Shown piece after piece: positions 3,339 to 56,539 of a DNA stretch of 64,000 nt. Each line of letters opens with the position of its first letter. The first letter of the stretch is position 1. The position numbers and the translations under genes are program-made. Under the pieces are notes generated by a model. It saw nothing but the letters and a program-made list of their open reading frames with translations. It was not told where the DNA came from and searched no databases. Source of the DNA: an uncultured Alphaproteobacteria bacterium (GTDB lineage Bacteria; Pseudomonadota; Alphaproteobacteria; SHNJ01); the NCBI GenBank assembly GCA_964647725.1, contig CAZYJI010000003.1, positions 70,121 through 134,120 on the forward strand. Reading direction: 5' to 3'.

Positions 3339-3487
3339 TCTAATGTTAAATTTGGCGCGCCCGATATTGGACAGGCCAGAAATTAGGTGGACTTTGCTTT
3401 TAGCATATTTCATGCTAAATAAAAGCCGCAAAGCACATTCGCTAAACCCATTCTAAAGCATTGTATTATCACAAGGATTTATTAAAA

Positions 3488-4228
3488 ATGGCTAAAAAAT
3501 CCGCCCGAAAAACCCCGAAAAAATCCCTGAAACCGGCCAAAAAGCCTGTTAAATCGGCAAAACGCCCGGGGCAACAACCCAAACAAAGCGCCGCCAGACC
3601 CAAAATCGGCGATCAAAAACAGCAATTATTTTTGGCGACATTAAAACATGCGGGCAAACATGGATTCAGCCTGGCCGCAATTCATGCCGGCGAGGATGAT
3701 ATGAGAATGGATCGCAACAAGGCACATTTATTGTTCAGCAATCCGCAACGCGATTTGTTGAAATATTTTTTGGCGTGGAGCAATGAACAATTGGCGGATA
3801 AACTGCGCGACTTGCCGAAGAAACAATGGAAAGTGCGCGAAAAAGTTTCTTATGGCGTGAGCAAGAAATTGGAATTGCTGACACCCTATCGTGACGCGGA
3901 AAAACAAGCTTTGTTGCTGACCGCGCGTCCCATGTATGCGGACTTATCGCTGAAAACTTTATACGATACTTGCGATATTATCTGGCGCGGTGCAGGTGAT
4001 ACATCGACCGATTGGAATTTTTATACCAAGCGCACGCTGCTGGCGGGCGTATATACGACGACATTATTATTCTGGTTGCGCGATGAATCGGAAGATTACG
4101 AAGACACCTGGCAATTTTTATCGCGCCGGATTGACAATGTGATGGCGATCAATAAAATCAAGGCCGCGTTCAAAAACCGCGAGACGTTCAAAGCCGGATT
4201 CGATTTCCTGAAAAAATTCGCAGCTTAG
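3488..4228 (+). CDS. COQ9-family protein (RpsU-divergently transcribed protein)
   Basis: Divergent from rpsU as is typical in alphaproteobacteria, with a lysine-rich N-terminus and a COQ9-like C-terminal domain. Start taken at MAKKSARK. Confidence 0.65.
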   Translation: MAKKSARKTPKKSLKPAKKPVKSAKRPGQQPKQSAARPKIGDQKQQLFLATLKHAGKHGFSLAAIHAGEDDMRMDRNKAHLLFSNPQRDLLKYFLAWSNEQLADKLRDLPKKQWKVREKVSYGVSKKLELLTPYRDAEKQALLLTARPMYADLSLKTLYDTCDIIWRGAGDTSTDWNFYTKRTLLAGVYTTTLLFWLRDESEDYEDTWQFLSRRIDNVMAINKIKAAFKNRETFKAGFDFLKKFAA

Positions 4229-5307
4229 GCAACCCGGTGATGTTGCCGATTTTGCAGCCATAAATGCAAAGCCTGTTGTGACACCGCATTGGTAACCGGG
4301 TTCGATCCGCATTTACCGCTGCCGCCACCCAAAATAATCGTGGTCAAATCGGTGGTTTTCACATCGCACCCAATATCGGTCAACTGCTGTTTATATTTCG
4401 CACTCAATGCGTAAGCGGTCAAATCTACACCGGCTTTGCTCGCCAATTTTGCCAACTGCACCGCGGTTGGATCGTTGGGATTCACATCGTGCAATAAAAC
4501 CTTATTGCCCAAAACAACGCCATTAGTACCCATGGCCGTGGCATCGTGATCCGAAATATTCAACCACAATGCTTCCGGCACAACCGATTTAATCCGCGCC
4601 AAACCTTCGTCGGTGATAACCGGCCGATGAATAACCAAATAGCCGGCTTCGGATCCGGGTTGCATGGTGGCGGTGTCCATATGAAAGCCCGATTGTTCGG
4701 ATGGCGAGCTTGCCACACGCAACGGCACCGGAACCACGCGCACTTTTAAAACATCCTGCAGAAATTGCGCCGCGCCTTCATCCGAACGCGGACCGCATCC
4801 CATTAAATACGCCTGAATTTCTTGGGTTTTCGGATCGCGAATAACGACCGTATCGCCGCTGCCTTCCCAATGCAAATAGCCGGGCATTTCGACAATCGTT
4901 GCATTTAAACTTTCGGCCAATTTGCGAAAATGTTTTACTTCGCCGCCGCGATAATTCTTAAACCGGAAATTGGATAAAACCGCAATTAATTCGCCTTCTT
5001 CGGTGATGTGAAACATGCCTGGGTCGGCGGTATAAACTTGATCGGCCAAATGTGGATTGGGATCGACATATTCCAATTTTGCACCCAAGAATTGGTGCAT
5101 TAAACGATGCGCGCCTTTTAATTGTGTTTGCGTCAGCTTGCTATAGGCTGCTGGATCGGCATGATATACGCGCGCGCCTTCGCTCATATGGCTGTTATTG
5201 GTTGCGTTGATCGCAAAAAACGGCGTGTGGCAGACCGCAAACATGGCGGCCGGAGATGCCCGTAAAGTTTGTGCGGGAAGCGCCGCTTGGTAGGCGATTG
5301 CGGTCAT
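4225..5307 (-). CDS. amidinotransferase-superfamily enzyme (arginine deiminase/DDAH/citrulline-hydrolase-like)
   Basis: HxDT-like motif (SGFHMDTA) and a C-terminal catalytic-Cys motif (GGGSGKCGSNP) that resembles ADI GGPRCMSMP. Divergent from argR. True start may be an internal Met. Confidence 0.55.
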   Translation of the reverse strand: MTAIAYQAALPAQTLRASPAAMFAVCHTPFFAINATNNSHMSEGARVYHADPAAYSKLTQTQLKGAHRLMHQFLGAKLEYVDPNPHLADQVYTADPGMFHITEEGELIAVLSNFRFKNYRGGEVKHFRKLAESLNATIVEMPGYLHWEGSGDTVVIRDPKTQEIQAYLMGCGPRSDEGAAQFLQDVLKVRVVPVPLRVASSPSEQSGFHMDTATMQPGSEAGYLVIHRPVITDEGLARIKSVVPEALWLNISDHDATAMGTNGVVLGNKVLLHDVNPNDPTAVQLAKLASKAGVDLTAYALSAKYKQQLTDIGCDVKTTDLTTIILGGGSGKCGSNPVTNAVSQQALHLWLQNRQHHRVA

Positions 5308-5612
5308 TATGCAGCCATGGTTTTTTGATTTGCCCAGGCAGCATAAGCGGCCAATGCTGCATCCAACGCAACCGGTTTTTTATCAGCATCGGTAATTTTA
5401 ATTTTGACTTCAACTGGCGTTCTTCCACCTGTAACGGCTTCTCGATTATCTCTTATTATTTGTTGTTGATGAGAATCAACCACTGCGCCTGCAAATTCTA
5501 AAGTTGGCGCAATAACTTCAGGACCGATATTATTTCCATGCGGCCCAATCATCACAATAGTGAATGCGGTCGAGATCGAGAATGTTGCTACTACCCCAGA
5601 TTTTTTCTTCAT
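5307..5612 (-). CDS. hypothetical small protein, translationally coupled (TAATG overlap) to the amidinotransferase-like gene
   Basis: 101-aa ORF with protein-like composition. Its stop overlaps the downstream start codon. Confidence 0.35.
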   Translation of the reverse strand: MKKKSGVVATFSISTAFTIVMIGPHGNNIGPEVIAPTLEFAGAVVDSHQQQIIRDNREAVTGGRTPVEVKIKITDADKKPVALDAALAAYAAWANQKTMAA

Positions 5613-5659
5613 TATTATATATCCTTGTTTCTACGTTTTGTTCCAAGGCAATTTCTCAT

Positions 5660-5750
5660 AATTATGCAAAAAGCGCAATCAACCACTGATATTTATGCAT
5701 TTCTATTGACATATTATGCGTTTAGGGATATTTTATGCGAGTTTTATGCG
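5660..5750. promoter_or_regulatory. phased TTATGC(R) repeats (ARG-box-like half sites) in the divergent argR/amidinotransferase leader
   Basis: TTATGC at 5662, 5693, 5714, 5733 and 5744, with spacings of roughly 1-3 helical turns. Also a 10-bp palindrome CATAATTATG at 5657-5666. Confidence 0.35.
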
Positions 5751-5762
5751 TAAGGAGATTTC

Positions 5763-6227
5763 ATGCCACAAACCAAACCGCAACCATCTTTGTCCGGCGC
5801 ATTACTGCAAATCATTCAATCCGGCGAAGCGGGAACGCAGCAACATTTGATATCGATGCTTTCCAAACAAGGCCTGGCCGCCAATCAATCGTCGATTTCG
5901 CGGGCGCTTAGAAAAATTGGCGCGGTAAAAAGTTTGAACGCCAAGGGCGAAGCGGTGTATCGCATTCCCCACGCCGCCAGCCAGATTGGGCGCAGCCAAA
6001 CCATCCGCGATTTGGTCACCCATATTACATCGAACGAACAATTGATTTTGGTGCACACCTGTACGGGGAGCGCGAATGTGGTGGCGCAATTGATCGACGA
6101 ACAGGATTTGCCGGAATTGCTTGGTACACTTGCGGGCGATAATACATTGATGATCGTGCCGAAATCGATTCGCCAAAAATCGACACTGGAAAAGAAACTC
6201 GCGGATTTTTTTAATTTATCTTTATAA
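5763..6227 (+). CDS. argR: arginine repressor ArgR
   Basis: N-terminal winged-helix (SISRALRKIG) and C-terminal GTLAGDNTLMIV matching the ArgR oligomerisation/arginine-binding motif GTIAGDDT. AAGGAG RBS 6 nt upstream. Confidence 0.8.
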   Translation: MPQTKPQPSLSGALLQIIQSGEAGTQQHLISMLSKQGLAANQSSISRALRKIGAVKSLNAKGEAVYRIPHAASQIGRSQTIRDLVTHITSNEQLILVHTCTGSANVVAQLIDEQDLPELLGTLAGDNTLMIVPKSIRQKSTLEKKLADFFNLSL

Positions 6228-9413: not shown

Positions 9414-10298
9414 ATGTCCGGAAAATTAGAATCTACGCATAAACGCGATTTCTTTAAAACATTGGGCATCGGCATGATCGCCGCGCCCGTGGCTGCTATC
9501 ACTGCCGCATCAATGGACAGCAAGGAATCCGGCGGCGTCAAAACTAAAGAGTCTGCTTATCAGCGCTTATTCCGCACCCGCGTATTAAAAGCTGGATGGT
9601 TCGAAGAACCACCCTTTACCATCTACAACCCAAATACGCAGGAACGTACCGGCATCGTGATCCGCATCGTCGAACGCTTTGCCGCTGATTTCGATATCAA
9701 AGTGCAATGGGAAACGATTTCCAACTTTGCCATGATGGGCCAAGATCTGGCGACCGGGAAATACGATGCTATTTGCGCGAGCTTGATCAACATGCCGCGC
9801 GCTATGCTGATCGATTCCTGTGACCCATTTGTGTTTGTTCCAATGTACGCCTATGTGCGCGCCGACGATAATCGGTTCCATTCGCACGCACAATTTAATG
9901 ATCCTTCTATTACTATATCAGGACAAGAAGGCACGGCCGCAACCGCTATTACCCAAAAGAGATTTCCTAAAGCCAAGCATCATATGCTTACCAATGCCGA
10001 ACTTTCCGATATGCTGGTTAGCGTGGCCTCCAAAAAAGCGGACGTTGTTTATATCACGCCTTCTATATATGAAGAATTCAACAAAAATAACCCTGGCAAA
10101 TTGAAGCCTATGAGTGGCGAGCCGCTGCAATTATTCACTTTTTCCTTCGGCGTAGCGCCAGAACAAGACGGTTTGAAAAGCCTATTCAATAACTCTTTGC
10201 ATCGCATGATGGTATCGGGCGAGTTCGACGAAATTTTTGCAGAATTTGATCCAACTAAAACTTTATTACGTCCCGGCATTTCTTTTAATAAAGGCTAA
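9414..10298 (+). CDS. periplasmic solute-binding protein (family-3-like), possible Tat signal
   Basis: N-terminal KRDFFKTLGIGMIAAPVAAITAAS signal with an SBP-like fold. No transporter partner nearby. Confidence 0.45.
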   Translation: MSGKLESTHKRDFFKTLGIGMIAAPVAAITAASMDSKESGGVKTKESAYQRLFRTRVLKAGWFEEPPFTIYNPNTQERTGIVIRIVERFAADFDIKVQWETISNFAMMGQDLATGKYDAICASLINMPRAMLIDSCDPFVFVPMYAYVRADDNRFHSHAQFNDPSITISGQEGTAATAITQKRFPKAKHHMLTNAELSDMLVSVASKKADVVYITPSIYEEFNKNNPGKLKPMSGEPLQLFTFSFGVAPEQDGLKSLFNNSLHRMMVSGEFDEIFAEFDPTKTLLRPGISFNKG

Positions 10299-13647: not shown

Positions 13648-15228
13648 TTAAATATCGAACTGCACCCCTTGGGCCAATGGCAAGGTCGTGCCGAAATTGA
13701 CCGTATTGGTCGCGCGGCGCATATAATTGCGCCAAGAATCGCTGCCCGATTCGCGGCCGCCGCCGGTTTCTTTTTCACCGCCGAACGCGCCGCCAATTTC
13801 TGCGCCCGATGTACCGATATTGACATTGGCAATGCCGCAATCGCTGCCCAGGCTTGAGGTAAATAATTCCGCCTCGCGCATATCATTAGTGAAAATACAA
13901 GACGAAAGGCCCTGAGGAACATCATTCTGCATTTTTATGGCATTATTAAGGTCGGTGTATTTCATCACATATAGAATTGGTGCGAATACTTCTTCGCGCA
14001 CCTGATCGGTTTGCGATGGCATTTCAATAATCGCCGGATTGACATAAAACGCTTCGGGATAAACGTTTTCAAATACGCGCTCGCCCCCGTGCAAAACCTT
14101 ACCGCCCTGTTTTTTCGCTGCATTCAAGGCATGCTGCATATTATCAAAGGCAACTTTATCGATTAGTGGCCCGATCAATGTGCCGGTTTCCAGCGGATTG
14201 CCGACACGTACCGACGCATAGGCTTTTTTAACCGATTCCAAAACCTTGGCATAAATCGATTCATGCACGATCAAACGACGCAAAGTGGTACAACGCTGGC
14301 CAGCCGTGCCGACGGCGGCGAATAAAATCGCGCGCACCGCCAAATTCAAATCAGCCGTTGGCGCGACAATCATCGCGTTGTTTCCGCCCAATTCGAGCAG
14401 GCTGCGGCCCATACGTTCCGCCACCTTTGGCGCAACTTGTTTGCCCATGCGGGTGGAACCAGTCGCGCTGATCAATGGCACGCGCTTATCGTTGACCAAT
14501 GCTTCGCCAACTTCGCGCAAGCCATAAATGGACAATGACAAATTATCCGGCGCTTTGTTGCCGTGCGCCGCATTGAATTTCGCAACCGCTTTGTCCCAAA
14601 TATTTTGGCAAGCCAGCGCGGTGGTGCATGTTTTTTCAGACGGTTTCCAAACAACTGCATTGCCGCAAACAATCGCCAATGCAAAATTCCAGCACCAAAC
14701 CGCAACCGGAAAATTGAATGCGCTGATCACGCCGATCACGCCCAGTGGGTGCCAGGTTTCCATCATGCGGTGATTGGGGCGTTCCGATGCAATCGTTAAA
14801 CCGTATAATTGGCGCGACAGGCCCACCGCGAAATCGCAGATATCGATCATTTCTTGCACTTCGCCGAATCCTTCAGACAGAATTTTACCGGCCTCTATCG
14901 TTACCAATTGGCCTAATTCCTGTTTATGCGCGCGCAATTCTTCGCCGAAAATGCGGATCAATTCGCCGCGCACTGGCGCCGGCACGCTGCGCCAGGACAA
15001 ATAAGCCTGATGCGCCTTGGTAATTTTTTCGGTAACCGATGCGGCTGAATCGCTTTGGAATTTGGAAATTTCCATCCCATCGATTGGCGAGCGCACGCTG
15101 ATATCACCTTTGGCGATTTTGTTTTTGTCGATCGACAAAGCGGCGCAAATATCGGGCGATAATAAATTTACGGATGGCTGCATCGGTTTCGATGAATCTA
15201 TTTTTTTGGCGGATGAGGTCATGGACAT
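13648..15228 (-). CDS. aldehyde dehydrogenase, ALDH7/AmaB-like (alpha-aminoadipic semialdehyde dehydrogenase-like)
   Basis: ALDH-family catalytic region ELGGNNAMIV. Strong resemblance to the antiquitin subfamily. Confidence 0.75.
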   Translation of the reverse strand: MSMTSSAKKIDSSKPMQPSVNLLSPDICAALSIDKNKIAKGDISVRSPIDGMEISKFQSDSAASVTEKITKAHQAYLSWRSVPAPVRGELIRIFGEELRAHKQELGQLVTIEAGKILSEGFGEVQEMIDICDFAVGLSRQLYGLTIASERPNHRMMETWHPLGVIGVISAFNFPVAVWCWNFALAIVCGNAVVWKPSEKTCTTALACQNIWDKAVAKFNAAHGNKAPDNLSLSIYGLREVGEALVNDKRVPLISATGSTRMGKQVAPKVAERMGRSLLELGGNNAMIVAPTADLNLAVRAILFAAVGTAGQRCTTLRRLIVHESIYAKVLESVKKAYASVRVGNPLETGTLIGPLIDKVAFDNMQHALNAAKKQGGKVLHGGERVFENVYPEAFYVNPAIIEMPSQTDQVREEVFAPILYVMKYTDLNNAIKMQNDVPQGLSSCIFTNDMREAELFTSSLGSDCGIANVNIGTSGAEIGGAFGGEKETGGGRESGSDSWRNYMRRATNTVNFGTTLPLAQGVQFDI

Positions 15229-24314: not shown

Positions 24315-24935
24315 TTATATGCTTGAAATATAGAGTTTAAAGGCCTCTATGCCTGCTTTTGCGCCTTTATCATGTTCCCAAACCGCGGATACGACCGCGA
24401 TGAAATCCGCGCCTGCGTCGATTAACGGTTTGCAATTATCCGGCGTAATCCCGCCGATGGCAACGCACGGCACGGTGGTCAATTCCACCCAATCGCGTAA
24501 CAATTCAACCGTTGGACGATATCCCGAATCCTTGGTTTTGGTTGGATAGAACGCGCCAAAGGCGACGTATTCGGCGCCCGCATCCGCCGCTTTAAACGCC
24601 AGATCCTTGGAATCGTGACAAGTCACGCCGATCATTTTATTCGGACCCAGAATTTGCCTCGCTTCGGCATAAGGCATATCGCTTTGCCCCAAATGTACCC
24701 CGTCGCAATCGTACCGGTGCGCCAGATCGACATAATTATTGATGATCAGCGGAATGTCATGCGCATGGCATACTTCCAAAACCGGCTCGACGGTGCGTTC
24801 AATGGCGACCATTGGCATGTCTTGCAGGCGCAATTGGAATACCGAAATCAAACCAGTGGATAATGCCACATCCAATTCCGGCAAGAATTGGTCCAGAGAG
24901 ATTTGCGGCGGAGAGATTAAATAAAGTTGGGTCAT
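24315..24935 (-). CDS. thiE: thiamine-phosphate synthase
   Basis: TIM-barrel ThiE; MIGVTCHD ... VAFGAFYPTKTK. Confidence 0.85.
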   Translation of the reverse strand: MTQLYLISPPQISLDQFLPELDVALSTGLISVFQLRLQDMPMVAIERTVEPVLEVCHAHDIPLIINNYVDLAHRYDCDGVHLGQSDMPYAEARQILGPNKMIGVTCHDSKDLAFKAADAGAEYVAFGAFYPTKTKDSGYRPTVELLRDWVELTTVPCVAIGGITPDNCKPLIDAGADFIAVVSAVWEHDKGAKAGIEAFKLYISSI

Positions 24936-25999
24936 TAATGAATTATTGCTTGTAAACCGCGTAATATTTTTTCTGGATCGTATAGTTTGAATGCATTAAA
25001 AGCCATAATCGGCATAGCTGGATATTTACCGGCATCCGCAATCATTACAATATTAGGATAAGGATAGTATTGTGCTAGAATCCAGAACTTATCCGATTGT
25101 TCTTGTATATATACTACTCCCATTTTCATTCTTTCCTCGGCAGGGAATTTTTCAATCCAACTGCTAAAATATCTATCGGGCTTAATTCCAATTTGCGATA
25201 ACAAAACTGCATTTCCTGCAAAAATATAATTCATCCATGCTGTCAACCTGTCCGCCTGCGCTTTATATTCAGAATTACGCAGCAAAAGCTTAAAGTCTTT
25301 ATTGAATTGGTTAGAGCGGGCACATAATAACATTCCATCGCCTAAATTGTTAACCACCTTCAATTGAGGCGGTAAAGAAGTCATAGCCTGAGAGGAATAT
25401 ATAGGAAACAATTTTTCAGCCTGCTCCGCTACATCATATAACCGCTTTTGCAATTCTTTAATGTTATCATCCGGCGCATTTTTTCTAATCCACCCTTGTT
25501 GATAAACTGGAATCCGGTCGGAATTTATAAAACGCTCCCCATCCACAAAGGAAACTTTCATTATATTTGATACAATGCCAATTTGGAATACAATCGCCAT
25601 ATCATAAAGAGCGCTGTATAAAACAAAATTCTGCACTGTCGGATGGTTGATTCCTCCTACCGCAACTAATTGGGCGGTTGTAAGTATAGGCAACCAACAC
25701 GGATCAAATTCTGCTATGTCCGCGATCACCTCCTTTTTAGTTTCTCCTTCCTGTAAAATACCAGACAAACCTTTTTGCGAGGATGCTTGATGCACATTAC
25801 TCAAATACCTCAAATTGGATTGCAAGACTCCGGCTGATAACCGTGCATCAGCAACTGATATTCCAAATTTCTGTGTTAAATTGGATTGCAATTTGATCGT
25901 TTGCGCTTCGTCCAATTGTAAAATAGCTTGCGCTGTGACGACTTGGGCAAAAAACAATCCTAATAGAATTGTAAAAAGAAAAATACCCAATTTACTCAT
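24935..25999 (-). CDS. secreted hypothetical protein, low-GC gene
   Basis: Signal peptide MSKLGIFLFTILLGLFFAQVVTAQA. Sampled stretches are about 37-40% GC against roughly 50% in neighbours. 1-nt overlap with thiE. Confidence 0.5.
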   Translation of the reverse strand: MSKLGIFLFTILLGLFFAQVVTAQAILQLDEAQTIKLQSNLTQKFGISVADARLSAGVLQSNLRYLSNVHQASSQKGLSGILQEGETKKEVIADIAEFDPCWLPILTTAQLVAVGGINHPTVQNFVLYSALYDMAIVFQIGIVSNIMKVSFVDGERFINSDRIPVYQQGWIRKNAPDDNIKELQKRLYDVAEQAEKLFPIYSSQAMTSLPPQLKVVNNLGDGMLLCARSNQFNKDFKLLLRNSEYKAQADRLTAWMNYIFAGNAVLLSQIGIKPDRYFSSWIEKFPAEERMKMGVVYIQEQSDKFWILAQYYPYPNIVMIADAGKYPAMPIMAFNAFKLYDPEKILRGLQAIIH

Positions 26000-29035: not shown

Positions 29036-31042
29036 TTACTTTCCTAATTTAGACTTTGCCAATTCAACTACTTTGTCCGGCGTGATGCCGAAATGTTTAA
29101 ACAAATCACCCGCTGGCGCCGATGCGCCAAAGGAATTCATACCAACAAATCCGCCACCCGGACCGATAAAACCATCCCAGCCCTGACGCACGCCGGCCTC
29201 GATCGCGATTTTGACTTTGCTGTTGCCGATCACTTGCGATTGATACGCCGCATCTTGTTGTGCGAACAACGCGCAACATGGCACCGACACAATGCGCGTT
29301 GCAATACCTTGTGTATCCAATTTCGCCTTGGCATCCATCGCAACGCCAATTTCGGATCCAGTTGCAAACAACGTTACTGGCGCATTTGGTGCATCGACCA
29401 AAATATACGCGCCGCGCGCGGAGAAATTTTCGGTTGCATTATCGCGCACATGCGGCACTGCCTGACGGGTCAATGCAATCACGCTTGGGCCGTCCTGGCG
29501 GCTTAAGGCCAGTTCCCAGCATTCCGCAACCTCGACCGAATCGGCCGGACGGAAGAACCATAAATTCGGAATCGCGCGCAATGCGGCATAATGTTCGACC
29601 GGTTGATGCGTCGGTCCATCTTCGCCAAGCCCGATCGAATCATGCGTCATTACATAAATCACACGCTGATGCATGATCGCCGACAAACGAATCGCCGGGC
29701 GGCAATAATCCGTGAAAATCAAAAACGTGCCGCCATACGGAATAATCCCGCCATGCAGGCTCATCCCATTCATTGCCGCCGCCATACCATGTTCGCGCAC
29801 ACCGTAATGAATGTATGTTCCGGCATAAGTGGGCGCCGCAACAACGGTGTGCGTTTTGACCTTGGTATTATTGGATGGCGTTAAATCGGCCGAACCGCCG
29901 ACCATTTCCGGCAATAAAGGCTGAACAACTTCTAACACTTTGCCGGACGATTGACGGGTCGCCAATTTTTCGCGCTTTGCAATCAAATCGGCTTTGAATT
30001 TCGCCAAGGCTTCGGAAACATTGACTGGAATTTTGCCCTCTAAACGGCGGGTAAATTCAATGCGTTTTTCGTGGGCACCCAAGCGTTTTTGCCAAGCATT
30101 ATATTGTTCCGCGCCGCGCGCGCCGATGGTACGCCAGGCATGCAAAATATTTTGCGGAATTTCAAATTCCGGCGCATCCCAAATCAATTTCGCGCGCGTG
30201 CCGGAAATTTCTTCCGCGCCCAAGGGCGAGCCGTGCGAATCATGCGTGCCGGCTTTTTTCGGCGCGCCATAACCGATCACGGTACGACAAGCAATCATCG
30301 TCGGACGGTCGGATTTTTGCGCGCGTTGCAATGCGCCCGCGATTTCATCCGGCTTGTGGCCATCGACGCGTTCGGCGTTCCATCCAGCCGCCTTGAACCG
30401 CGCGACTTGATCGCCGGATTCCGATAAATGCAATTCGCCATCGATGCTGATGTTATTGTCATCAAACAGCACGATCAATTTACCCAATTTCATATGCCCG
30501 GCGAGCGAGATTGCCTCGTGGCTGATGCCTTCCATCAAATCGCCATCGCTGGCGATGTCCTAGGTGTAATGATTGACCAATTCATCGCCAAAACTGGCGT
30601 GCATAATTCTTTCGGCCAATGCAAATCCAACCGAATTGGCGATGCCTTGTCCCAATGGACCGGTGGTGGTTTCAATTCCGGCCGCATAACCATATTCCGG
30701 ATGGCCAGCCGTTCTGCTGCCCAATTGACGGAATTTTTTGATTTCATCGATGGTCATATCTTCATAACCGGTCAGATATAACAACGAATACAACAACATC
30801 GATCCGTGACCGGCCGATAAAATAAACCGATCGCGATCCGGCCAGGCGGGATTTTTCGGATCGAATTTTAAAAATTGGCTGAATAAAACCGTGGCAACAT
30901 CGGCCATACCCATCGGCATACCGGGATGACCGGATTTGGCGCGTTCGACCGCATCCATAGACAAAAATCGAATGGCGTTGGCCATTTGGTCATGGGGAAT
31001 GTCAATTTTAGGGGAAATTTCGATTTTCGCGGCTAACGTCAT
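29036..31042 (-). pseudogene. tkt: transketolase interrupted by a single in-frame TAG
   Basis: N-terminal 160-aa ORF ([12 protein letters not shown] ... ELVNHYT) and C-terminal 500-aa ORF (MEGISHEA ...) are in the same frame, separated by TAG at 30560-30562 where Tyr is expected. The GDG thiamine-diphosphate motif is still present. Confidence 0.7.
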
Positions 31043-32540: not shown

Positions 32541-32705
32541 GGTAAGCGGCCTTTCGCGTTAGGGTGCATGCAACCCACCGGCCGATTAAAACTCTTCGGG
32601 AGCTGTCTCTGTCTGGGCCGTGGTTCAGGTATATGGTTCCCACCTGGTCTTTTGGGCCATGGCGGAGTTCATCGTCACCCAACGGTCACGGCGGCTTACC
32701 AACTT
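32541..32705 (+). ncRNA. ssrS: 6S RNA (SsrS), predicted
   Basis: The 5' GGUAAGCGGCC pairs with the 3' GGCGGCUUACC, and GGGUG pairs with CACCC, giving a long closing helix around a central region. About 165 nt, immediately upstream of 5-formyl-THF cyclo-ligase (the conserved ssrS-ygfA arrangement). Confidence 0.55.
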
Positions 32706-32714
32706 GGAATTTGA

Positions 32715-33293
32715 ATGACCGATCTTGAATTAGCCAAAAAATCCTTACGCGAAGAAGTTTTGAAAAAGCGCAGTGCCGTGCACAGCATGTCGCGCGAACG
32801 CGCCGCGAACACGATTCGCGATTTATTTTTACAAGCCTTGCCGTTACGCCCCGGTTCTATTGTCGCCGGATATTGGCCGTTGCCGGGCGAAGTAGATTCC
32901 ACCCCGCTTTTAAACGCGCTCGCGGAAAAGAAATTTGAAATTTGCCTGCCGGTTGTAACCGAACACGAATCGCCGCTGATTTTCCGCAAGTGGACGGTAG
33001 GGATGAATTTAGGCGAAGGGTACGCGGGTACGCGTATTCCACCAGCAGAATCGCCAATCTTAAACCCGGATATTTTGGTGGTGCCCTTGGTGGCGTTTGA
33101 CCGCGCCGGATATCGTTTGGGTTATGGCGGCGGGTTTTACGACCGCACCTTAAACGCCATGCGCGCCCAGCGGCAGATTATGGCGGTTGGATTGGCCTAT
33201 GCGGCACAACAAGTTCCCTTGGTCCCGCACGAAGGCACCGATGAAAAACTGGATTGGGTAGTAACCGAAGAACTGGCAATTAACTGTAATTAG
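32715..33293 (+). CDS. ygfA: 5-formyltetrahydrofolate cyclo-ligase
   Basis: GYWPLPGEVD ... GYGGGFYDRTL. Confidence 0.85.
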   Translation: MTDLELAKKSLREEVLKKRSAVHSMSRERAANTIRDLFLQALPLRPGSIVAGYWPLPGEVDSTPLLNALAEKKFEICLPVVTEHESPLIFRKWTVGMNLGEGYAGTRIPPAESPILNPDILVVPLVAFDRAGYRLGYGGGFYDRTLNAMRAQRQIMAVGLAYAAQQVPLVPHEGTDEKLDWVVTEELAINCN

Positions 33294-56464: not shown

Positions 56465-56539
56465 TGGTGGCGGAGAGTGGGATTGAACCACCGACCAACG
56501 GCTTATGAGTCCGCTGCTCTACCACTGAGCTACCCCGCC
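56465..56539 (-). tRNA. tRNA with anticodon CAU (elongator Met or lysidine-modified Ile2)
   Basis: The reverse complement folds as a cloverleaf: GGCGGGG acceptor, GCTC/GAGC D-stem, CUCAUAA anticodon loop, GGTGG/CCACT T-stem, and an encoded CCA. G27-U43 pairing; one A-G mismatch at 31-39. Confidence 0.8.

Follow-up and report, generated by a model that had tools for sequence, protein, structure and literature searches.

Which reaction is catalysed by an enzyme whose gene lies back to back with that of an arginine repressor, and does the repressor control it? This question is raised by a locus in a 64,000-nucleotide stretch of DNA from an uncultured Alphaproteobacteria bacterium (contig CAZYJI010000003.1, positions 70,121 to 134,120), here called the window. 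In it, argR (5763-6227, plus strand; 154 amino acids (aa), C-terminal end LLGTLAGDNTLMIV) is transcribed divergently, across a spacer of 150 bp, from two genes on the minus strand: a small open reading frame (ORF; 5307-5612) that encodes an orphan protein of 101 aa, and an enzyme gene (4225-5307) that encodes a predicted pentein-fold guanidino-group hydrolase of 360 aa, belonging to the ArgZ/DDAH-like family and, within it, to what we call the Asp-type clade. The stop codon of the small ORF overlaps the start codon of the enzyme gene in a TAATG read from the sequence (window 5305-5309, minus strand). An earlier reading of this DNA (the original prediction) had described argR as divergent from two genes overlapping in this way, and both the ORF listing and the sequence agree; it had put the second protein at roughly 340 aa, and the actual length is 360 aa. 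The answer that we favour, with a probability of about 45%, is that the enzyme hydrolyses the guanidino group of free L-arginine, or of a close N-omega-substituted L-arginine, once, yielding citrulline. It would then most likely be a short enzyme of the arginine deiminase (ADI) type that is not ArcA, and not a dihydrolase of the ArgZ type.

Fold and family of the enzyme

Curated models recognise the enzyme below their thresholds. Its best NCBIfam match is arginine dihydrolase, still sub-threshold (NF052232 and NF052231: 70.8 bits against a cutoff of 450, and 66.8 against 1025); the Mycobacterium tuberculosis-type dimethylargininase model NF045659 gives 60.2 bits (cutoff 300), and Pfam PF19420 (DDAH_eukar) gives 19.4 bits (cutoff 23). 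At E<=1 there was no match to the dimethylargininase models NF045658 and NF045660 or to TIGR01078 (arcA), nor was there any to NF046062 (CtlX). The original prediction had proposed profile searches, with PF19420 among the models, and these return a pentein, at sub-threshold scores only. Among single sequences, the best match by phmmer is ArgZ (E 1e-8). The family is also rare: when 5.8 billion proteins were searched through a word index, only five close relatives came up (59-100% identity), every one of them from an uncultured alphaproteobacterium. A profile search run exhaustively over 1.84 billion cluster representatives placed only the enzyme's own family below 1e-30, the next match standing at 5.6e-27, with about 250 distant relatives below 1e-3.

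The fold was modelled with AlphaFold2 from an alignment of 112 sequences, giving a predicted local distance difference test score (pLDDT) of 93.9 and a predicted template-modelling (TM) score of 0.91; an alignment of five sequences gave a pLDDT of 43 and was unusable. Foldseek comparison with the PDB returned 98 matches at E<=1e-3, and the best 50 are nearly all penteins. At the top stands the N-terminal arginine dihydrolase domain of ArgZ/AgrE (target-normalised TM 0.91-0.93, root-mean-square deviation 2.1-2.2 A, 21-22% identity), the single best structure being ArgZ 6jv1 (TM 0.93 on the target, 2.1 A, E 2e-20). DDAH forms the second class, at E of about 1e-10 to 1e-12 (DDAH-1 about 1e-12), and amidinotransferases, ADI and AstB occupy lower ranks. 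In this model the enzyme is a complete five-fold alpha/beta propeller, that is, a pentein domain. The amidinotransferase/ADI/DDAH fold foreseen for it is thus upheld by a confident model and its Foldseek matches; in the comparison with ADI, DDAH, CtlX and AguA that had been proposed, the likeness to DDAH stands, but the nearest known relatives are ArgZ/AgrE and the Rv2323c-type "DDAH", and not ADI, CtlX or AguA.

A protein of 360 aa that matches no arcA model is, as had been suspected, too short for canonical ArcA. We also considered whether the small ORF and the enzyme gene are the two parts of a frameshifted or split arcA, and rejected it: the small ORF has no match to the ADI model, and the 360-aa protein spans the whole fold alone, so that, being a complete pentein domain, it is not part of a frameshifted arcA. 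A family-specific insertion of 26 residues (276-301; window 4405-4482, minus strand), where fewer than 30% of relatives have residues, is modelled with helices at 280-291 and 296-299.

A predicted active site with aspartate at both guanidino-binding positions

The predicted catalytic nucleophile is Cys333 (codon 4309-4311, minus strand), the counterpart of ArgZ Cys264 and invariant in the 112 aligned relatives. The HxD residues His209-Met-Asp211 (codons 4675-4683, minus strand) correspond to ArgZ His168 and Asp170, and H209 and D211 are each kept in 107 of 108 relatives. Asp95 (codon 5023-5025, minus strand) falls at the guanidino-binding position, which is Asn71 in ArgZ and Asn in CtlX. Across the 108 distant relatives, N38, D89, R120, E123, E148, D152, R174, H209, D211, N262 and C333 are invariant or near-invariant. 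The catalytic trio C333, H209 and E148 aligns with ArgZ C264, H168 and E118; the phmmer alignment gives as ArgZ counterparts of the conserved residues D65, N71 (= Asp95), R90, E118, R139, H168, D170 and C264, and sets the C333 region against ArgZ GGAAKC. Of the two signatures named in the original prediction, HxDT is present as FHMDTA, whereas G-x-x-C-x-S-x-P is present in GGGSGKCGSNP with its C-x-S-x-P part exact and its G-x-x-C part approximate only.

Penteins that act on guanidino groups have two substrate-binding Asp residues, and the putative citrullinase CtlX has Asn at both places (Price et al. 2022, PMC9007349). At this pair of positions the enzyme reads Asp/Asp (YTAD and HMD), ArgZ Asn/Asp, CtlX Asn/Asn, and ADI has FTRD and HLD, so that by its residues the enzyme carries the signature of a guanidino rather than a ureido substrate. 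The Asp95 column holds Asn in 75 and Asp in 33 of the 108 relatives, and aligns with wild-type ArgZ (TAN) and with the ArgZ N71S mutant 6juz (TAS), the PDB title of which is "ArgZ(N71S) covalently bound to a reaction intermediate". As a strict discriminator of DDAH from dihydrolase, Asp against Asn was rejected, since a sequence that passes the M. tuberculosis "dimethylargininase" model (domain 1 of P0013) has Asn.

In structures of DDAH and ArgZ, contacts to the alpha-carboxylate and alpha-amino groups of the substrate come from two Arg residues and the first Asp; therefore, the substrate here should be a free L-amino acid. In the mechanism that we propose, Cys333 would attack the guanidino carbon with the assistance of His209 and Glu148, the guanidinium would be held by Asp95 and Asp211, and the alpha-carboxylate and alpha-amino groups would be held by Arg120, Arg174 and Asp89.

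The Asp-type clade and its gene neighbourhoods

The 108 distant relatives fall into two motif groups, one with DQV[FY]TAD ... GGxxHCxxN (n=33) and an ArgZ-like one with DMVFTAN ... KSGGSAKCLTL (n=75). In a neighbour-joining tree the family of the window lies inside a clade with 24-26 Asp-type and 0 Asn-type sequences, and in 181 of 200 bootstraps Asp-type sequences make up most of its nearest neighbours.

Gene neighbourhoods were covered for nine Asp-type relatives of the 33 in the alignment. P0010 (L009), 29% identical to the enzyme, likewise has a divergently transcribed argR as its neighbour, and strong ARG boxes lie in the interval. P0011 (L010) lies directly downstream of argG, and P0040 (363 aa; L019 571-4498, also L020) lies between a divergent argG and a convergent argH. 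P0017 (L011/L012) is followed by a CtlX-like gene (311 bits; FCNN, YHTN) and then by that of the ornithine aminotransferase RocD, while P0029 (L016) is followed by a CtlX-like gene (313 bits; FCNN, YHTN). The neighbourhoods of P0016, P0018 and P0022 (L013-L015, L018, L017; P0018 is divergent from an AlaDh/PNT-family gene) and of a Micavibrio relative (L008) are uninformative. The recurrent immediate neighbours of the clade, ArgG and CtlX, both consume citrulline, and this is the main basis on which we propose that the clade forms citrulline.

On two unrelated metagenomic contigs a CtlX-like citrullinase with Asn/Asn thus comes directly after an Asp/Asp pentein (L011 1782-4876, with RocD following as well, and L016 6001-7828), an arrangement that resembles a catabolic operon for a two-enzyme "split arginine dihydrolase".

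ArgR and its candidate operators

ArgR matches Pfam PF01316 Arg_repressor (E 8e-13), the winged-helix DNA-binding domain, and PF02863 Arg_repressor_C (E 1e-18), the C-terminal arginine-binding and oligomerisation domain. Both Pfam domains pass, while TIGR01529 is missed by a little (122.1 bits against a cutoff of 130.45); the second-ranked NCBIfam model is the E. coli-type PRK05066, at 107 bits. Residues 125-127 of its arginine-binding loop (window 6135-6143) are GDN, in place of the GDD seen in four solved ArgRs aligned with it (those of Vibrio and M. tuberculosis, AhrC of B. subtilis, and one more); the ArgRs of L001 and L006 also have GDN, and that of L009 has GDG. The replacement may alter ligand affinity or specificity.

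The spacer between argR and the small ORF is rich in ARG-box-like sequence. A tandem pair of 18+3+18 bp (5684-5722; minus-strand reading AACGCATAATATGTCAAT-AGA-AATGCATAAATATCAGTG) overlaps the -35 hexamer of the one good promoter-like site, that for argR, which is itself predicted only, from a consensus scan (5706-5734, plus strand; TTGACA, 17 nt, TATTTT; 10/12). Pattern and position weight matrix (PWM) scans find a third ARG-box-like site at 5653-5670 (minus-strand reading TTTGCATAATTATGAGAA), 41-58 nt upstream of the start of the small ORF, and two more GCATAA half-sites lie in the stretch from the argR promoter-like site to the start codon of argR (5726-5753; minus-strand reading TTACGCATAAAACTCGCATAAAATATCC). 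The consensus here is AATGCATAATAATTCATT, with TGCAT as half-site and a weakly conserved right half, and it resembles the E. coli ARG-box consensus, TGAAT-N4-ATTCA. There are five copies of GCATAA within the 83 bp of 5662-5744, against about 0.08 expected from the density in the window (61 per 64 kb). The whole window holds two tandem matches to the E. coli-type pattern, the other of which (14623-14661) has no GCATAA cluster, and no other convincing ArgR target and no comparable box cluster was found in it. A lone ARG-box-like site at 24990-25007 (plus strand; AATGCATTAAAAGCCATA, PWM score 16.6), near the junction of thiE (24315-24935) and an unannotated 354-aa ORF (24935-25999) and inside the 3' end of the latter, is probably a chance match. 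We know of no description of ArgR with E. coli-type operators in uncultured Alphaproteobacteria, Micavibrio-like lineages included.

The tandem pair, with its 21-bp phasing, is conserved in four lineages (L001, L003, L006 and L004). The third site is kept in L001, and L003 has a collinear ATTGC...GCGAAT element. In L006 and L004 the small ORF ends in a terminator-like hairpin with a T-run, which is followed by an ARG-box cluster immediately upstream of the enzyme gene. Since L004, without an adjacent argR, has ARG boxes directly upstream of the enzyme gene, the enzyme probably carries its own ArgR operator, and its pairing with argR appears to be regulatory rather than accidental. The control by ArgR that had been suggested for this module thus finds support in conserved tandem boxes, which over the argR promoter-like site have the classic layout of autoregulation: the divergently encoded ArgR would control transcription of the enzyme operon through E. 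coli-type ARG boxes and would also autoregulate argR. For the minus-strand operon a consensus scan yielded no promoter, and neither L001 nor L003 conserves the candidates picked by hand. Because the boxes (5653-5670, 5684-5722 and 5726-5753) fill nearly the whole 150-bp spacer, any sigma-70-type promoter of the minus-strand operon located there must overlap one of them, the usual geometry of repression; on these geometric grounds the boxes would favour repression of the enzyme.

The locus in related lineages

The order purK, argR, small ORF, enzyme gene, COQ9-like gene and rpsU recurs in two more lineages (L001/L002 and L006). L004 and L005 retain the small ORF and the enzyme gene with no adjacent argR, and in L003, where the small ORF is absent, argR is directly divergent from the enzyme gene across 155 nt. 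The COQ9-like gene of the window (3461-4228) is convergent with the enzyme gene, and their stop codons (TAG, and TAA on the minus strand) share 4 bp (window 4225-4228), so that there is no space for a terminator between the two genes. The GC content across the locus shows no anomaly that would indicate recent horizontal transfer.

In L003 (2048-5150), the enzyme gene and the COQ9-like gene are parted by an inserted DUF1800-DUF1501 pair; in the window a DUF1800 gene lies farther off (3-1841), which points to local rearrangement around the locus. The database call of the L004 enzyme (P0004, 316 aa) is probably truncated (L004 5793-5993 / L004 5857-6951): its frame is open upstream, with an earlier Met, and encodes the conserved N-terminus YAVCHTPFFAINATNNSH, and a called 66-aa ORF that overlaps the L004 enzyme gene in another frame looks spurious.

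A fast-evolving gene in the predicted operon

The small ORF is a real, fast-evolving and lineage-restricted gene. It has a Shine-Dalgarno-like AAGGA upstream (5622-5626, minus strand; read from the sequence) that is conserved in L001; the insertions and deletions that separate it from its L001 counterpart, of 6, 30 and 3 nt, are all multiples of three; and its ratio of nonsynonymous to synonymous substitution (dN/dS) in that comparison is 0.32 (dS 0.99), against 0.03-0.08 in neighbouring genes. Over aligned residues the small protein is about 50-57% identical to that of L001, whereas the enzyme reaches 89%. Syntenic ORFs of 97 aa in L004 and 82 aa in L006 show weak homology (shuffle z-scores 2.0-4.0; hidden Markov model E values of 0.048 and 2.8 among 1678 ORFs), and a profile search of 5.8 billion proteins yielded a family of four members only, all syntenic at this locus. 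It has no Pfam, NCBIfam or PDB match by sequence or profile, and no match to the N-terminal extensions of longer pentein relatives or to any ORF in the other loci. Two other readings of the small ORF were discarded. A transmembrane segment or signal peptide is not conserved, the best 19-residue Kyte-Doolittle window scoring 1.68 here and 0.9-1.5 in the homologues, and an RNA element in its place was rejected, as Rfam gave no match in this region at E<=1, to a riboswitch or any other RNA.

The small protein is not an obligatory partner of the enzyme, because its gene is absent in L003 and forms a separate transcription unit in L004 and L006; it would be an optional accessory and not a needed subunit. 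The two-gene unit of the original prediction therefore holds as coupling through TAATG in this lineage, but not as a conserved functional pair, given the gene's own terminator-like hairpin in L004 and L006 and its absence in L003. The most economical history starts from an ancestor with argR, ARG boxes, the small gene, a terminator, a second set of ARG boxes and the enzyme gene; loss of the spacer in the lineage of the window and L001 would then have given rise to the operon and its TAATG overlap, and L003 would have lost the small gene.

Other features of the window

In the window, arcB, arcC, ast and agmatine genes are all absent, and it has neither another arginine gene nor a second pentein; this extends to all 64 kb the absence of adjacent arcB/arcC, ast and agmatine-pathway genes already noted in the original prediction. 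The remainder is usual alphaproteobacterial housekeeping (purEK, PPi-PFK, TrcR, gap, tkt, ruvABC, tol-pal, ftsH, folP, glmM and hscA-iscS). A lone gene for a family-3 solute-binding protein of the amino-acid ATP-binding cassette type (9414-10298, plus strand) follows the PFK gene; it has no permease or ATPase partner nearby and no ARG box upstream, and is present in L001 and absent from the same place in L004.

The transketolase gene is split by one in-frame TAG (window 30560-30562, minus strand), which separates ORFs 30560-31042 and 29036-30538, in the context ...LVNHYT*DIASDGDLMEGISHEA..., at a position where transketolases have a conserved Tyr. Possible explanations are a nonsense mutation or a pseudogene, an error of assembly, and read-through. 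A 6S RNA (32541-32701, plus strand; 49.1 bits against a gathering score of 46.4) lies immediately upstream of the 5-formyltetrahydrofolate cyclo-ligase gene (32715-33293), the usual ssrS-ygfA arrangement, and the window has one tRNA gene (56468-56539, minus strand).

Discussion

The original prediction had spoken of an arginine-derivative hydrolase of unclear specificity. That description stands, and the two-Asp signature together with the neighbours of the clade would refine it toward citrulline formation. What is shown is the fold, the conserved residues, the ARG boxes, the synteny and the selection on the small ORF as a coding gene, whereas substrate, product, the roles of the residues and the direction of regulation are inferred. 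Arginine itself as the substrate is consistent with what is known of the wider family: of its characterised members, ArgZ and AgrE act on free arginine according to their PDB titles, and Rv2323c is induced by arginine and required for growth on it (PMC4569260). Several points weigh against a single hydrolysis of arginine under ArgR control. The Asp-type clade has no characterised member, and the Asp/Asn rule is a correlation from few characterised enzymes. The family of the enzyme is very divergent, being equidistant at about 24-25% identity from the Asp-type and the Asn-type group, and it has Lys332, a residue typical of the Asn type, instead of the His of most Asp-type members. Genes for the consumption of citrulline (ctlX, arcB/arcC or argG) are absent from the window. 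An arginine deiminase beside argG and argH, where P0011 and P0040 are found, would set up a futile cycle, from which it can be argued that at least these two relatives use a substrate other than arginine. With GDN instead of GDD, the ligand response of ArgR is not certain; and if the boxes repress, an enzyme that destroys arginine would be switched on under arginine scarcity, an odd arrangement physiologically.

The enzyme might instead be a DDAH-type salvage enzyme, which would convert an N-omega-substituted arginine (such as mono- or dimethylarginine from the turnover of prey or host protein) into citrulline, to be rebuilt into arginine by ArgG and ArgH, under repression by arginine-bound ArgR. 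We consider this somewhat unlikely. It would make sense of the Asp-type relatives after argG and between argG and argH, it agrees with the repression geometry of the boxes, and DDAH is the second-best structural class; yet the characterised members ArgZ/AgrE and Rv2323c act on free arginine, the enzyme reaches <=60 bits against cutoffs of 300-450 for every curated dimethylargininase model, the window contains neither argG nor argH, and, no promoter being placed confidently, repression is a geometric argument only. It is unlikely, too, that the enzyme is a true single-enzyme arginine dihydrolase like the N-domain of ArgZ, converting arginine into ornithine, CO2 and two ammonia in a catabolic route activated by ArgR. 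ArgZ/AgrE are indeed its best sequence and structure matches, arginine dihydrolase is its top NCBIfam match, and the want of a separate citrulline-using gene nearby would be expected; but it has Asp95 where ArgZ has Asn71, its family nests in an all-Asp clade apart from the ArgZ-like sequences, a dihydrolase would make redundant the separate CtlX citrullinase that follows two Asp-type relatives, and 70.8 bits fall far from the cutoff of 450.

Very unlikely, in our view, is an amidinotransferase, which would move the amidino group between arginine or ornithine and another amine, making a guanidino compound or, from another donor, arginine. The fold and the Cys-His-Asp machinery are shared, SxtG, AGAT and StrB1 are among the structural and profile matches, and argG or argH beside relatives could regenerate an arginine donor. 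However, ArgZ and DDAH match much better than these amidinotransferases (for which Foldseek gives E of about 1e-8 to 1e-9 and TM about 0.55), genes of a biosynthetic cluster are absent nearby, and CtlX beside relatives points to citrulline as the product, not ornithine. As for the pairing with argR, the boxes might serve autoregulation of argR alone, with the enzyme gene and the small ORF adjacent by chance: the strongest boxes overlap the argR promoter-like site, and no promoter was identified for the minus-strand genes. This is most improbable, given that L004 retains a tandem ARG-box pair at its enzyme gene without an adjacent argR, that L006 has a second box cluster between the terminator-like hairpin of the small ORF and the enzyme gene, and that the 29%-identical relative is independently paired with argR and ARG boxes. 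Single hydrolysis to citrulline under ArgR control is thus the reading that we retain.

A broader proposal is speculative and, as a whole, unlikely. The Asp-type clade would be an unrecognised class of short (290-400 aa) arginine deiminase-like enzymes that form with CtlX a two-enzyme "split arginine dihydrolase" route, and the chemistries of deiminase, dihydrolase and citrullinase would be told apart within one family by the pairs Asp/Asp, Asn/Asp (as in ArgZ) and Asn/Asn (as in CtlX); in this lineage the orphan small protein would work with the enzyme or modulate it, and the GDN ArgR would sense a ligand other than, or besides, arginine.

The locus is a variation on known arginine metabolism and is not conceptually new; its value lies in annotation and enzymology, and current understanding is not overturned. 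If the proposed function is true, it would nevertheless give a role to an uncharacterised branch of the ArgZ/DDAH-like penteins that curated models miss or loosely label "DDAH", and a testable rule, by which enzymes that hydrolyse arginine once may be told from those that do so twice by Asp or Asn at two positions. The prediction of pathways for arginine and citrulline would also be helped in uncultured Alphaproteobacteria, Micavibrio-like lineages among them, while the small ORF illustrates the capture of a young orphan gene into an operon.

Comparison with known systems

The closest known system is the N-domain of the cyanobacterial ArgZ (Sll1336) and AgrE (Alr4995). The enzyme is like it in fold, in the Cys/His/Glu of catalysis, in the Arg/Arg/Asp for the amino-acid moiety and, by prediction, in a substrate of the free L-arginine type. 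In spite of these similarities, it is 21-22% identical, has Asp95 for Asn71, belongs to another clade, and has the 26-residue insertion, N- and C-terminal extensions and a predicted control by ArgR; it is also a stand-alone protein, without the ornithine cyclodeaminase-type C-terminal domains. The Rv2323c-type "dimethylargininase" of M. tuberculosis (NF045659) belongs to the same ArgZ/DDAH-like family and is similar in size; it is genetically tied to arginine use and encoded next to a regulator (PMC4569260). Rv2323c sits in a roc cluster with rocD and rocE, unlike the enzyme gene here, and the model-passing P0013 domain 1 has Asn at the position of Asp95.

DDAH (from P. aeruginosa, and human DDAH-1) shares the fold and the single hydrolysis to citrulline that is proposed here, and has Asp at the guanidino-binding position; identity, though, is 12-17% and TM about 0.57 (query-normalised), and the enzyme stays below threshold for PF19420 and the three NCBIfam dimethylargininase models. 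With ArcA it would have in common a reaction that turns arginine into citrulline plus ammonia, the chemistry of two Asp, His and Cys, and the frequent control by ArgR-family proteins. ArcA differs in its length of about 405-420 aa, with an extra helical domain, is a weak structural match (TM about 0.42, E about 1e-7) with no TIGR01078 match, and usually has arcB/arcC neighbours, while the window has no arcB, arcC or arcD (no OTCase or carbamate kinase). The putative citrullinase CtlX, of the same superfamily and encoded immediately downstream of Asp-type relatives, has Asn/Asn (PMC9007349; FCNN and YHTN in L011 and L016) against the Asp/Asp of the enzyme.

Finally, the operators resemble those of the E. 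coli-type ArgR system in being 18-bp imperfect palindromes, in tandem with a 3-bp gap, over the argR promoter, and they differ in their half-site, TGCAT here and TGAAT in E. coli.

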